Below are positions 44,008 to 47,822 of a DNA stretch of 64,000 nucleotides, one piece after another; position 1 is the first letter of the stretch, and the number at the start of each line of letters is the position of its first letter. The stretch covers positions 1,824,001 through 1,888,000 of the forward strand of contig CAXXOA010000001.1 in NCBI GenBank assembly GCA_963666275.2, in the 5' to 3' direction. A program made the translations under genes and the position numbers. Origin of the DNA: Oceanispirochaeta sp. (GTDB taxonomy: Bacteria; Spirochaetota; Spirochaetia; DSM-2461). The notes beneath the pieces were generated by a model. It did not search any database. It saw only the letters and a program-made list of their open reading frames with translations, and was not told the DNA's origin.

Positions 44008-44700
44008 TCAGCGGCGAATTTCAGTAGCACAGTTGTGAAACTGAAATTCCTTCTGATACAGGGACAGAGTGTCCGCGGAAACAGGGGGAAGGCTGTTACA
44101 CTCTTCACTCAGACAGTTTCCCGGTTTAAACCCGCTGATAAAGTGGGGGCTTGTATCAATGATTTCGGCTAATGCAGGAATATCTTCCATCGGAAGGAGT
44201 GAGGGCAGCAGGGTTGTCCTGAACTCATAATTCCTGGATGAGACATTTTTCTGAAGCCATATGACAGATTCCCTGATTTTATCGGGAGTATCCGAGTCGC
44301 CTCCCAGAAGGGAATATTTTTCGGGAAGGACTTTTATATCCATGGCAATATAATCGGCTCTGATTTCCCTGATTCTATCGGGTTTCAATCCGTTTGTATC
44401 AATTTTTACAGGGAGATGGGTCAATTTCCTGATTGTATCTATGAAGGCCTGAAGTCCGGGATATAAAAGGGGCTCCCCTCCTGATAAAACAACCCCTCCC
44501 AACAGGGGAGCCCGGAATTCTAAAAATTCTAAAATTTTATTTCGGGTTAAAAGACCCTCTGATCTTCCCAGTGCCAGATCGGGATTGTGACAGTAGGGAC
44601 AGCGAAGGTTGCACCCCGGGAAGAATATGACAGGGGCAATCTTCCCGGGATAGTCAACCAGAGACGTTTTCTGCAGTCCGAAATAAGAGGGAATCCCCAT
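44008..44700 (-). CDS. nrdG: Anaerobic RNR activating enzyme (radical SAM)
   Basis: SLVDYPG, GCNLRCPYCHN, SGGEP, YEFRTT; directly downstream of nrdD. Confidence 0.93.
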   Translation of the reverse strand: MGIPSYFGLQKTSLVDYPGKIAPVIFFPGCNLRCPYCHNPDLALGRSEGLLTRNKILEFLEFRAPLLGGVVLSGGEPLLYPGLQAFIDTIRKLTHLPVKIDTNGLKPDRIREIRADYIAMDIKVLPEKYSLLGGDSDTPDKIRESVIWLQKNVSSRNYEFRTTLLPSLLPMEDIPALAEIIDTSPHFISGFKPGNCLSEECNSLPPVSADTLSLYQKEFQFHNCATEIRR

Positions 44701-44702
44701 TC

Positions 44703-45215
44703 TCAGGCAATAGCCGCAGATTTCTGAAAAAGTTCATTAACCTCTTTTGGGTTTCCGGTTCTGTAAAGTTCACTTCCGTTTTTATCAAAGAAAACAACTG
44801 TTGGAGCTGAAAATATACTCAGGGCAGATGCTTCTTCCATTCCCGCTTCGGTATCTACATTAAAGGAACGGGATGTCAGTTCCACACCCTCAAGAGCTTC
44901 TTTCATGGGAGGACAGTTGGGACAGGTGTTCCGATAGAAAAAGGAATAGGACCAGAAGGTACTGTTATCGGAGATTTCATCAGTAGAAGCTTCCCGGGAG
45001 GGCTCTGAAAGTTCTTCCCGAATTTCTCTTCCCGTTAATCTGGAAAATGTCACCCGGTCCTTGTATTCTCCCTGCTTTCCCAGGTTCCAGTTCCTGACGG
45101 ATCTGTAATAGCCTACGATTCGGGAATAGACTTCTGTTTCCTGTCCCTGAACGGTATTGATTTTTTCTTTTAAACGGGTGATTTCCTGATCAATTGCTGT
45201 AATTTCATCTGTCAT
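44703..45215 (-). CDS. Separate NrdD glycyl-radical domain fused to a thioredoxin/glutaredoxin-like domain
   Basis: TEVYSRIVGYYRSVRNWNLGKQGEYKDR (NrdD C-terminal Gly-radical motif); TCPNC and SAPT redoxin motifs; GGAGGT SD 10 nt before ATG 45215. Confidence 0.85.
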   Translation of the reverse strand: MTDEITAIDQEITRLKEKINTVQGQETEVYSRIVGYYRSVRNWNLGKQGEYKDRVTFSRLTGREIREELSEPSREASTDEISDNSTFWSYSFFYRNTCPNCPPMKEALEGVELTSRSFNVDTEAGMEEASALSIFSAPTVVFFDKNGSELYRTGNPKEVNELFQKSAAIA

Positions 45216-45216
45216 G

Positions 45217-47331
45217 TTATTTCGCACCTCCCTGGGCGATTAATTGAGCTTTTTTATTTTCCAGTTCTTCAATCTGATTTTTCAGCTTTTCCTTCTCTTC
45301 CTCCCGGCAAAGGGGACAGTTGAAGTGCTCACCGCTGAGATAACCGTGGATTTTACAGATGGAAAAAGTGGGTGATATGGTGAAATAGGGGAGTCTGTAA
45401 TTATAGGCTATTGTTTTAACAAGCTCCTGGCAGGCTCTCCAGTCGTTGATGGATTCTCCCAGAAATCCATGAAAAACAGTTCCGCCCGTATAGCGGGTCT
45501 GCAGATCATCCTGGAAATCCATGGCTTCGAAAATATCCCTTGTATAGTCCACAGGCAGCTGTGTGGAATTGGTATAATAGGGATTGTCTTCTGTACCGGA
45601 AGTGAGAATATCGGGATAGTGTTTTTTGTCATGTCTGGCAAGCCTGTAGCTTGTACTTTCTGCAGGGGTTGCTTCCAGATTGAACAGGTCTCCCGTTTCC
45701 TCCTGATAGTCGGCCAGTCTGTTTCTCATATGATCCAGAATTTCACAGGCAAAAGCCTTGGATTCGGCATCGGTGATATCTTTTCCCAGAAAATTCAGAA
45801 GACTTTCGTTCATTCCATTCAGACCGATGGTACTGAAATGGTTATTCAAATGCTTGAGGTATCGTTTTGTATAGGGGAAGAGTCCTGCCTGGAGAAGTCT
45901 GTTGATCACTTTCCTTTTGATGGTCAGGGACTGTTTTGCCAGATCCATAAGATAGTTAAGACGTTCAAAATATTCCGACCGGGAACGGGCAAGATATCCG
46001 ATCCGTGCCAGATTTATTGTGACAACACCGATTGAACCTGTAAACTCATCCGAACCGAAAAGACCGCCGCCCCGTTTTCTCAATTCCCTTTTGTCGAGCT
46101 GAAGCCGGCAGCACATGGATCTCACATCATCGGGATTGAGATCCGAATTGATGAAATTCTGAAAATAGGGTGTCCCGTACCGGGAAGTCATTTCAAAAAG
46201 CAGTTTGGCATTTTCAGAATCCCAGTCAAATTCTTTTGTCACGTTATAGGTGGGGATCGGATAGGCAAATCCTCTGCCGTCGGCATCGCCCTGGATCATC
46301 AGTTCGATAAAGGCCTTATTGATCATATCCATTTCACTGCGGCAGTCTCCGTAGGTGAAATCCTGTTCTGTTCCGCCTACAATGGCTTTTTTCTCCACCA
46401 GATCATCCGGGACTGTCCAGTCAAGGGTAATATTGGTAAAAGGAGCCTGGCTTCCCCATCGGGAGGGCGTATTGACTCCGAATATGAAGCTCTGGATACA
46501 CTGCTTCACCTCTTTGTAACTGAGGCTGTCAGCTTTTACAAAGGGAGCCAGATAGGTATCGAAACTGGACAGGGCCTGAGCACCGGCCCATTCGTTCTGC
46601 ATGATCCCCAGGAAGTTTACTATCTGAAAAATAAGGGTGGACAGATGACTTGCGGGTTTGGATGTTATCTTCTCTTTGACACCTCCCAGGCCCTCTTCGA
46701 TCAACTGACGGAGAGACCAGCCGGCACAGTATCCGCTGAACATGGAAAGATCATGGATATGCATGGCGCCGCTTTTATGAGCTTCGGCGATATCAGGTGA
46801 ATAGATATTTTTCAGCCAGTAGTTGGCGGTTATGGTTCCGGAGTTGTGAAGAATGAGTCCACCGAGAGAGAAATTCACATTGGCATTTTCATTGACACGC
46901 CAGTCGGACTGGGAAAGATAACCGTCCATTGTTTCATTGATGTTGAGCATCAGTTTGCGGGTATCGCGAATGGCTTCATGTTTTGCCCTGTAGAGGATAT
47001 AGGCCCGGGCGATTTCAACTTCGTTGTTTTCAATCAGAACCGTTTCGATCAGATCCTGAATTTCCTCTACCGCGGGAGCTGAATTGGGGTGTCTGTCCGA
47101 CATGAAGACGATCAGTTTGGCTTCGGTGCTTTTGGTAAGTTTTTCCGTCAGTTCAGGATCATTTCCATTCACGGCCTTCACAGCTTTTTCTATTGCCTCG
47201 CGGATCCTTTTCCTGTCGTAGGAAATAACCCTTCCATCCCTTTTTACAACCCGTTTGATAATGGATTCAGTCGGTGTGGGAGTGCTTTCCTCAATACCCA
47301 GAAAAGCCCTCCAGTCGTTTTGTGAATTCAT
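45217..47331 (-). CDS. nrdD: Class III (anaerobic) ribonucleoside-triphosphate reductase catalytic subunit lacking the glycyl-radical tail
   Basis: ATP cone VVKRDG, HIHDL, GYCAGWS, SMCCRL, EATPAES, YTGGTVFH, Zn site CKIH..CPLC, then a helical tail and stop; GGAGG SD before ATG 47331. Confidence 0.93.
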   Translation of the reverse strand: MNSQNDWRAFLGIEESTPTPTESIIKRVVKRDGRVISYDRKRIREAIEKAVKAVNGNDPELTEKLTKSTEAKLIVFMSDRHPNSAPAVEEIQDLIETVLIENNEVEIARAYILYRAKHEAIRDTRKLMLNINETMDGYLSQSDWRVNENANVNFSLGGLILHNSGTITANYWLKNIYSPDIAEAHKSGAMHIHDLSMFSGYCAGWSLRQLIEEGLGGVKEKITSKPASHLSTLIFQIVNFLGIMQNEWAGAQALSSFDTYLAPFVKADSLSYKEVKQCIQSFIFGVNTPSRWGSQAPFTNITLDWTVPDDLVEKKAIVGGTEQDFTYGDCRSEMDMINKAFIELMIQGDADGRGFAYPIPTYNVTKEFDWDSENAKLLFEMTSRYGTPYFQNFINSDLNPDDVRSMCCRLQLDKRELRKRGGGLFGSDEFTGSIGVVTINLARIGYLARSRSEYFERLNYLMDLAKQSLTIKRKVINRLLQAGLFPYTKRYLKHLNNHFSTIGLNGMNESLLNFLGKDITDAESKAFACEILDHMRNRLADYQEETGDLFNLEATPAESTSYRLARHDKKHYPDILTSGTEDNPYYTNSTQLPVDYTRDIFEAMDFQDDLQTRYTGGTVFHGFLGESINDWRACQELVKTIAYNYRLPYFTISPTFSICKIHGYLSGEHFNCPLCREEEKEKLKNQIEELENKKAQLIAQGGAK

Positions 47332-47348: not shown

Positions 47349-47810
47349 TCACTTTTTATCATTTAAAGATTCAATTACTTTTATAAACTCTTCTACATTC
47401 TCAAAATGCCTGTAAACAGAGGCAAATCTGACATAAGCGACCTTATCCAGTTGAAAAAGCTGGGTCATAATCAGCTCTCCCAACTCTTCTGAAGGGATCT
47501 CATGAGTAGATTTTCCACGGATATTGGCTTCATCTTCAATGGCATGGAGAATCGTATCGACCTGGAACTGGGAAATGGGCCTTTTTTCAATAGCCCTCTG
47601 CAAACCTCTTTCCAGTTTTTTTAAATCAAAAGGCTGACGGGTTTTATCTTTTTTTACAACCATCAGAGGGATTTCCTCGACTTTTTCATAGGATGTAAAA
47701 CGATATCCGCAGGAAGCACACTCCCTCCGTCGCCTGATAGAAGTTCCGCTAATGTTTTGTCTGGATTCAATTACCTTGTCATCCAGAGTTCCACAGAGAG
47801 GACATTTCAT
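47349..47810 (-). CDS. nrdR: Transcriptional repressor NrdR
   Basis: MKCPLC, IRRRRECASCGYRFTSYE, ATP cone, VAYVRFASVY. Confidence 0.96.
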   Translation of the reverse strand: MKCPLCGTLDDKVIESRQNISGTSIRRRRECASCGYRFTSYEKVEEIPLMVVKKDKTRQPFDLKKLERGLQRAIEKRPISQFQVDTILHAIEDEANIRGKSTHEIPSEELGELIMTQLFQLDKVAYVRFASVYRHFENVEEFIKVIESLNDKK

Positions 47811-47822
47811 CCATGCCTCCAT

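Follow-up and report, generated by a model that had tools for sequence, protein, structure and literature searches.

The class III ribonucleotide reductase (RNR) NrdD of an Oceanispirochaeta species is divided between two adjacent genes in the window analyzed here, a stretch of 64,000 nucleotides (assembly GCA_963666275.2, contig CAXXOA010000001.1, positions 1,824,001 to 1,888,000), and we read it as an obligate two-chain enzyme with the gene structure, helix interface and proposed mechanism described below, a reading to which we assign a probability of roughly 0.8. The narrower statement, that the enzyme has two chains and would carry its radical on the small one, we hold with somewhat greater confidence still. 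A first-pass annotation of this DNA had proposed a two-gene enzyme with its radical glycine supplied in trans, and the proposal is borne out by a family profile divided at the break, by a split in 28 of 29 related loci and, on the prediction side, by a coiled coil joining the modeled chains. The layout is common in spirochetes and undescribed in the literature searched. While gene structure and conservation support the two-chain reading well, a built-in reductant and repair by replacement are plausible, unproven additions to it. The annotation mentioned neither the thioredoxin-fold domain of the small chain, nor the docking helices, nor the relatives in which NrdD and thioredoxin are fused, and with these the account shifts toward a small subunit that would bring both the radical and a tethered reductant. 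The two genes and the ribosome-binding site between them are, in window coordinates:

45217..47331, minus strand: nrdD large chain, 704 aa (PF13597, E 8.7e-177; NF006126, 1100 bits; 4COI, E 1.1e-38)
44703..45215, minus strand: small gene, 170 aa, encoding a helix, a glycyl-radical loop, a linker and a thioredoxin-fold domain (PF13597 profile positions 531-562)
45226..45231, minus strand: Shine-Dalgarno (SD) sequence GGAGGT of the small gene, within the last codons of the large gene and 10 nt upstream of the small-gene ATG

The large gene terminates in TAA (45217-45219), which is followed by a single base (C, 45216) and then by the ATG of the small gene (45213-45215); the annotation's placement of the missing NrdD tail in the next open reading frame (ORF), 1 nt past the stop and behind its own GGAGGT, was verified in the sequence. 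Across this junction the Pfam NRDD profile (PF13597) is shared out between the chains, with positions 1-531 of 562 on the large chain (589.6 bits) and positions 531-562 on the small chain (E 4.4e-8; 32.7 bits, above the curated cut-off of 26.2), and NCBIfam NF006126 divides between the two likewise. A profile cut exactly at the gene boundary is no chance resemblance. The large chain beats the curated cut-offs of both NF006126 (cut-off 548 bits) and TIGR02487 (482 bits, cut-off 326), and its closest solved structure is the T. maritima NrdD 4COI.

The large chain consists of an ATP-cone, a ten-stranded barrel, a zinc ribbon and a C-terminal helix, and lacks the glycyl-radical loop. The motifs that the annotation listed for this ORF are all in the sequence, and RxxGY is indeed absent from the chain, which ends at profile position 531 of 562, 29 residues past CPLC. 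Lacking a radical glycine, the large chain has to receive one in trans from the small chain. The ORF starts with ATG behind the SD sequence GGGAGGGG, with a GTG at 47352 as an alternative start. The features of the large chain are:

46975..47253, minus strand: ATP-cone, residues about 27-119 of the 704-aa chain (PF03477, E 1.1e-20; coordinates converted from a 711-aa numbering of the chain)
46714..46734, minus strand: GYCAGWS, with C202 as the conserved beta-A active-site cysteine, aligned to Y124-C125 of T. maritima NrdD (residue names from PMC4493059)
46105..46116, minus strand: finger-loop MCCR (M406, C407, C408, R409) of the double-cysteine type, invariant in 21 of 21 large chains and aligned to T. 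maritima SCCR 328-331 (motif classes as in PMC9669993)
45658..45681, minus strand: NLEATPAE, with E553 invariant in the large-chain alignment and aligned to T. maritima E495, taken as the proposed proton-donor glutamate of PMC9669993
45307..45357, minus strand: zinc ribbon CKIH..CPLC (C659, H662, C672, C675), all four residues invariant in 21 of 21 large chains, with His (H662) at the position of the second Cys
45220..45306, minus strand: large-chain tail, residues 676-704, an amphipathic docking helix by its heptad pattern and its contacts in the complex model

In this tail, hydrophobic residues occupy positions 683, 687, 690 and 697 in 76-100% of the 21 chains and the intervening residues are mostly charged; the helix is not present in unsplit relatives.

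The small chain is a standalone protein bearing a glycyl-radical loop of the NrdD type and not of the pyruvate formate-lyase (PFL) type: a Pfam scan at E <= 0.01 returned PF13597 and PF13098 only, without a match to the PFL-type PF01228. Its sequence includes TEVYSRIVGYYRSVRNWNLGKQGEYKDR, in which the presumed radical residue, Gly35, is encoded at 45111-45113. Its parts are:

45150..45212, minus strand: N-terminal docking helix, residues 2-22 (AlphaFold2 helix 2-21; heptad conservation; antiparallel contacts to large-chain residues 676-698)
45054..45140, minus strand: glycyl-radical loop, residues 26-54 (conservation in 68 sequences; placement in the model)
44706..44954, minus strand: thioredoxin-fold domain, residues 88-170 (invariant CxxC and cis-Pro; AlphaFold2; Foldseek; profile against the Protein Data Bank (PDB))
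44913-44924, minus strand: active site C98-P-N-C101

Conservation was judged in an alignment of 68 diverse homologs. Positions 5, 8, 12, 15, 19 and 22 of the helix are hydrophobic in 84-100% of them; in the loop, R32, I33, V34, G35, Y36, Y37 and R38 are kept in at least 90%, and W43, N44, G46, K47, E50 and R54 are invariant, as are C98, C101 and the cis-Pro P138 of the redoxin domain (68 of 68 each), with P99 retained in at least 90%. The AlphaFold2 model of that domain has a predicted local distance difference test (pLDDT) score of 96-98 over residues 90-160 and the order beta-alpha-beta-alpha-beta-beta-alpha. Its top Foldseek matches are thioredoxins (E 2e-5, probability 1.00), and a profile built from the 68 homologs and compared with the PDB finds redoxins of the small archaeal type (1a8l, 5e-10; 1fo5, 4e-7) and NrdH (1h75, 3e-4). 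Homologs of the small chain number 369, with lengths of 93-298 aa, and the family comprises 221 representative clusters at E <= 1e-10, the best 150 of which all measure 102-345 aa. Treponema bryantii and Spirochaeta isovalerica are among the species with a homolog. One 255-aa homolog on an ENA contig (P0013) continues into the N-terminus of NrdG; its stop may have been lost, or a frameshift or misassembly may be the cause.

Among 41 related genomes, 32 have an NRDD match and 29 have the small gene. When the DNA of these 29 loci was inspected base by base, 28 were found to hold a stop-terminated large ORF with a helical tail followed by a separate small ORF, while the remaining locus (L016) is interrupted by a contig end. 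Six relatives with apparent fused frames of 863-936 aa were rejected as fusions, the DNA having one or two in-frame stops in each. The genes meet in many ways: ten loci overlap by 1 nt (TAATG or TGATG), four by 4 nt (ATGA) and one each by 8 and 14 nt, while two have a +1 gap (this window included) and the others gaps of 3-75 nt. Relative to the large gene, the small one is found in each of the three frames, and in seven loci both are in frame with one or two stops between them; with frame, overlap and gap this variable, there is no single conserved rule for frameshifting or readthrough. Judged by their 1-4-nt overlaps, most junctions look translationally coupled.

Of 90 small-gene starts, 78 have an SD core at -17 to -4, compared with 516 of 4500 random positions (11.5%), and 88 begin with ATG, which we regard as signs that the small gene is translated independently; the conservation of both split point and SD sequence among relatives, which the annotation had offered as a check, was thus found. 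The C-terminal GG of many large chains is encoded by the small-gene SD GGAGG (45220-45232 in the window; junctions L002-L010), so that many large-chain C-termini are dictated by a ribosome-binding site. The split layout occurs in spirochetes from gut, rumen, oral and sediment samples and in at least 221 sequence clusters. Five relatives (L111-L115, in G001, G002, G022, G013 and G018) also carry a one-chain NrdD of the formate-type MGCR class, 749-757 aa long, which fits the view of the split enzyme as a distinct system with a different reductant; the 85% complete G001 shows the MGCR NrdD alone. A 912-aa NrdD of the ACCR type on a very long branch was seen in G030 (L116).

The predicted complex agrees with the layout. 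The annotation had suggested modeling the large and small chains together, and ESMFold2 co-folding of both, with our own alignments of 21 and 68 rows, gave ipSAE interface scores of 0.79, 0.74 and 0.78 in three runs (median 0.78), compared with 0.00 for the best of three controls; the ipSAE mark used is attained by 116 of 157 solved complexes and by 2 of 215 mismatched pairs, a calibration that is rough here because it was applied to our own alignments. The runs agree on at least 81% of contacts, with partner pLDDT of 70-72. In the model, small-chain residues 22-38 lie within the barrel (large-chain 353-359, 385-387, 556-565, 578-600 and 619-628) and also pair with the zinc-ribbon strands 655-661 and 667-673, the strand pairing arising from residues 26-31. 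The tail helix of the large chain makes contacts at 676, 679-680, 683-684, 686-687, 690-691, 693-694 and 697-698, and the N-terminal helix of the small chain at 1, 4-5, 8-9, 11-12, 15-16 and 18-19, with i, i+3/4 spacing. Because the contact pairs include 687-12, 687-15 and 683-15, the helices run antiparallel in the model, which puts the break between the genes at the turn of a helical hairpin. The two chains are thus predicted to be joined by an antiparallel coiled coil of roughly the last 25 residues of the large chain and the first 22 of the small one, by strand pairing with the zinc ribbon and by insertion of the glycyl loop into the barrel, of which the coiled coil is the sole part without a solved precedent.

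The two halves lie in a tightly packed minus-strand operon in the order nrdR, nrdD large chain, small gene and nrdG, with nrdR first and with nrdG beginning 2 nt past the small-gene stop (TIGR02495 NrdG2, 153.7 bits, cut-off 131):

47349..47822, minus strand: nrdR, repressor of RNR genes, with zinc ribbon and ATP-cone (TIGR00244 NrdR, E 4.7e-55; PF22811 and PF03477)
44008..44700, minus strand: nrdG, radical S-adenosylmethionine (SAM) activase (TIGR02495 NrdG2, E 3.7e-45; PF04055)

With this gene set, we infer that the NrdG encoded next door would place the radical on Gly35 and that the radical would move from there to a finger-loop cysteine, with nucleotide reduction proceeding as in one-chain NrdD. 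The CPNC domain, tethered by a flexible linker of about 25 residues, would re-reduce the active-site disulfide at each turnover and would regain its own electrons from a cellular reductase. The residues for thiol-based reduction are present in the large chain (MCCR, C202 and E553), and we give even odds that the thioredoxin-fold domain is the reductant of the split RNR. With its methionine, the MCCR motif falls outside the thioredoxin-only class III type as defined for the N. bacilliformis and T. maritima subclades in PMC9669993, though the double cysteine and E553 are present; the same source counts 83% of double-cysteine enzymes as MCCR.

The origin of the layout was approached through a survey of species genomes, in which the best 80 of 593 matches were examined. 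Split loci with helix and CxxC account for 59 of them, fused NrdD-loop-thioredoxin chains for 19, and two are odd. Every split locus (59 of 59) has the N-terminal helix, and all carry Spirochaetota-type labels except one in a metagenome-assembled genome (MAG) labeled Mycoplasma sp. (L076, on a 124-kb contig), where mis-binning or horizontal transfer are both possible. The fused chains come from Lachnospiraceae, other Clostridia, Oscillospiraceae, Eubacterium hominis, a Bacillales MAG, Latescibacterota, two archaea and one Spirochaetia MAG, and in all 19 just 8 residues separate the zinc CxxC from RIVGY. The same short junction is seen in the fused proteins P0122-P0124 (806-853 aa), which continue into a thioredoxin domain, and a one-chain protein labeled Rectinema (P0141) reads '...CPICGAETEVYSRIVGYYR...' and terminates shortly past the loop; the helices are absent from all four. 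In this window the distance from CPLC to R32 is 60 residues, and the split was accompanied by an insertion of some 52 residues, as the comparison of 60 with 8 implies. A fused form that retains the helices was not found among the 19 fused loci or among 23 longer proteins, and no protein above 734 aa occurs among the best 120 large-chain tails. An apparent fusion with a helix, the 476-aa P0121, was rejected: it passes through out-of-frame sequence, lacks a second CxxC and is probably a gene-call or assembly quirk, the related L058 of Treponema lecithinolyticum being split.

The two odd loci differ from each other. In a Spirochaetales MAG (L103, 767-3930) the small chain has 76 aa, with helix and loop and without a redoxin domain, and nrdG follows directly. 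In a Nanoarchaeia MAG (L087, 849-4187) a 678-aa NrdD ends within the zinc ribbon and is followed by an 81-aa ORF with CGKRC and the loop, an 81-aa CVKC redoxin and NrdG, a three-way division that by its sequence looks like an independent fission at another point.

In a barrel-core tree (FastTree, 100 rows, SH-like support), all 73 split sequences fall within one clade of 78 (support 98), and the fused Bacillota and archaeal forms fall outside it. A plausible history leads from one-chain NrdD through an NrdD-thioredoxin fusion (Bacillota, archaea) to the split enzyme with helices (Spirochaetota), in which the layout probably arose from the fusion through a two-helix insertion of about 52 residues containing a stop and a restart. 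Since the helices are homologous throughout the clade, we prefer a single origin of split and helices from a fused ancestor, with later re-fusions by in-frame deletion, a preference that this tree cannot decide.

Relatives of the small chain are also found in viral DNA. Among the best 80 of 393 IMG/VR stretches encoding one (L117-L196), a large-chain homolog was sought within 4 kb. In 59 of these loci a tiny ORF of 41-126 aa encodes an NrdD-type loop with no large-chain homolog within that distance (for example, 3988-4176 in L121 and 4003-4173 in L129); in 17 the loop lies in or beside a large NrdD, and four fall outside the motif pattern. By a simple rule, the N-terminal parts of the 59 tiny ORFs comprise 15 heptad helices of the spirochete kind, 24 short Cys-containing leads, 10 Zn-ribbon-like sequences and 10 classed as 'other'. 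Ten whole viral records, seven of them at least 90% complete and three with terminal repeats, all contain PF13597 only at profile positions 522/531-562, in a frame of 60-103 aa, and no barrel. Neighboring genes encode terminase, portal, single-stranded DNA-binding protein, helicases and methylases, with ThyX in two loci. A scan of 60 phage ORFs showed no radical-SAM enzyme, so the phage pieces would depend on host NrdG. The INPHARED phages gave one weak match only (MT835493, 28% identity). These loci suggest that a large chain encoded elsewhere can receive its radical piece in trans. One of the 17 loci with a large NrdD (L118, 888-4165) is itself split: its large ORF, of 1024 aa, matches the large-chain profile over 5-341 and again over 331-618, a pattern suggestive of an inserted element, for instance an intein, and a 75-aa small ORF follows.

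Other explanations of the break were weighed against the two-chain reading. That it reflects faulty sequencing or assembly, or a pseudogene in decay, draws only on the a priori oddity of a one-base gap and is highly improbable, given that 28 of 29 related loci are broken alike, none of the 28 readable ones has a continuous ORF, and the catalytic residues are invariant in both chains; contigs assembled from three sequencing runs are also identical over 44900-45500, which adds little because all the runs share one sample, possibly the genome's own source. The annotation's concern about an indel artifact is thereby answered. Programmed recoding, in which a +1 frameshift or stop readthrough would yield one fused chain and leave the split at the DNA level only, has something to recommend it in this window, where 3 nt separate the SD-like GGAGGT from AAA-TAA-C and slippage by +1 would lead into the small frame; the junction GGAGGT-GCG-AAA-TAA-C is one that we take to resemble the prfB +1 frameshift site. 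Over the 28 loci, however, three relative frames, overlaps of up to 14 nt, gaps of up to 75 nt and seven in-frame cases with one or two stops argue against a shared mechanism, and the small genes come with an SD and an ATG of their own, so we consider recoding very unlikely. A split intein or trans-splicing was set aside, the flanks being plain heptad helices of 20-25 residues with no further domain, although no intein-specific search was made. A more serious contender is neutral fission, in which a two-helix hairpin was inserted into an NrdD-thioredoxin fusion, between its zinc ribbon and glycyl loop, and, with the hairpin joining the parts, a stop and restart in its turn would have been free of cost and drifted to fixation without any function. 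The predicted position of the break at the turn of an antiparallel helix pair suits this scenario, as do the highly variable junction spacing, the nesting of fused and canonical forms within the split clade, where the state seems easily changed, and the wide occurrence (19 of 80 loci) of helix-less fused forms, which we judge to work elsewhere. Against it stand the lack of any fused form with helices (0 of the 120 best tails, 0 of 23 longer proteins and 0 of 19 fused loci), the retention of the split across the whole class in at least 221 clusters, and the apparently independent archaeal split and standalone phage pieces, which suggest a recurring advantage; on balance we find drift alone unlikely.

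A related proposal, put forward in the annotation as a possible aerotolerance strategy and compatible with a two-chain enzyme, is that the split is kept because the 19-kDa radical chain can be replaced after O2 cleavage at the glycyl radical, in the manner of GrcA/YfiD. The large chain has no glycine loop of its own, 59 of 80 viral loci and 10 of 10 whole records carry the radical piece without a barrel, and by analogy these pieces parallel the Y06I protein that phage T4 holds for PFL (PMC8683613). Most junctions overlap by 1-4 nt, however, which suggests fixed co-expression and not a separately regulated spare; this genome (G000) has a single copy of the small gene, the coiled coil and strand pairing predict a stable complex that would not be easily swapped, and the phage pieces would need the NrdG of a host. 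We therefore treat replaceability as a tentative idea, a little ahead of drift. More speculative, and on present evidence doubtful, is the extension of the two-chain reading in which the radical cofactor would be, throughout a bacterial class, a detachable cartridge, docked by a zipper, charged by NrdG, served by its own thioredoxin and swapped after oxygen damage, with phages supplying nothing but the cartridge so as to revive or commandeer a host's large chain; if true, ribonucleotide reduction would gain its first known repair-by-replacement system and its first known radical spare part from a phage.

Several observations weigh against the two-chain reading or parts of it. The split enzyme is known from genes and predictions alone, and the placement of the glycyl loop in the barrel may pass on the strength of likeness to solved one-chain NrdD (4COI, 1H78). 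No small-chain residue beyond 65 confidently touches the large chain, so that the thioredoxin-fold domain, left free of confident contacts, appears to hang on a flexible linker; its thioredoxin match (PF13098, 20.7 bits) lies below the cut-off of 27, and TIGR01068 likewise scores 16.2 bits against a cut-off of 96.8. The MCCR type could use either formate or thioredoxin according to PMC9669993, and thioredoxin is not needed for a two-chain design, since L103 and the phage versions lack the domain. Given the prfB-like junction, a minor fused product is possible in this genome only. On the tree, three fused and two canonical sequences nest within the split clade, and the label 'split' requires four changes, at least three of them forced by well-supported branches. 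Finally, essentiality cannot force the split RNR to be active, because the genome has another RNR with a class I/II barrel (L110, G000:C1:2057418-2061833; PF02867, E 3.5e-111).

For the two-chain enzyme, an RNR whose loop is always on a second chain would be a clean system for asking how an activase reaches a barrel-buried loop, and bears on whether the loop is activated free or docked and on the repair of oxygen damage through subunit exchange. The tethered thioredoxin domain bears on the reductant of the large MCCR group of class III RNRs, and the coiled-coil zipper at the break offers a natural design for engineering split or repairable radical enzymes. To our knowledge, all characterized glycyl-radical enzymes have the radical glycine on the catalytic chain, and separate radical proteins are known only for PFL. 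Literature searches found neither a split class III RNR nor an NrdD-type autonomous radical protein; subscription journals and the RNRdb site lay outside their reach, and a prior mention there is possible. Small-chain annotations are inconsistent ('hypothetical', 'glutaredoxin', 'thioredoxin family' or truncated 'ribonucleotide reductase'), so that surveys filtered by length or coverage may drop or mislabel it. The surveys PMC9531940 and PMC9669993 place the glycyl-radical domain at the C-terminus of the alpha chain, the former having excluded sequences below 400 residues; PMC6187632 gives one grx::nrdD fusion (Lachnospiraceae TWA4) and no split. A 2026 review (PMC13450708) holds that spare parts are known for no glycyl-radical enzyme class other than formate lyases, and PMC8683613 treats only YfiD and Y06I as validated and others as speculated.

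Compared with one-chain NrdD/NrdG systems (T. maritima 4COI/4U3E, phage T4 1H78 and P. copri 8P23), the split enzyme has the same barrel, finger loop, zinc ribbon, glycyl-loop sequence and adjacent NrdG, and its nearest one-chain relatives, such as P0141, are almost identical to it near the loop. Whereas one-chain NrdD carries glycine and thiyl cysteine on one chain with 8-12 residues from the zinc CxxC to the loop, the split enzyme has 60 residues, a stop and a restart before the loop and a thioredoxin domain after it. A catalytic chain made from two genes is reportedly also found in the split class II RNR of Pseudomonas aeruginosa (NrdJa/NrdJb); class II RNR has no glycyl radical. The thioredoxin-dependent class III enzymes of N. 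bacilliformis and T. maritima share the double-cysteine finger loop and the glutamate aligned to T. maritima E495, but they have SCCR without the methionine and use a free thioredoxin, in contrast to the MCCR and tethered domain of the split enzyme. A redoxin built into an RNR subunit and shown to be its reductant is described for the NrdB-glutaredoxin fusion of Facklamia ignava in PMC6187632, and this is a precedent for the role suggested for the thioredoxin domain, although that enzyme is a class I RNR that depends on glutathione and has its redoxin fused at the N-terminus of the radical-generating subunit. The closest likeness in principle is to GrcA/YfiD of E. coli and Y06I of phage T4, where the radical loop sits on a separate small protein, which is charged by its partner's radical-SAM activase and docks into a barrel without a working loop (PMC8683613). 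GrcA, however, is a spare for an enzyme that owns a loop and is encoded elsewhere, whereas the large chain of the split RNR is always loopless and its gene adjoins that of the small chain, and the small chain differs from GrcA in its NrdD-type loop, its docking helix and its redoxin domain.

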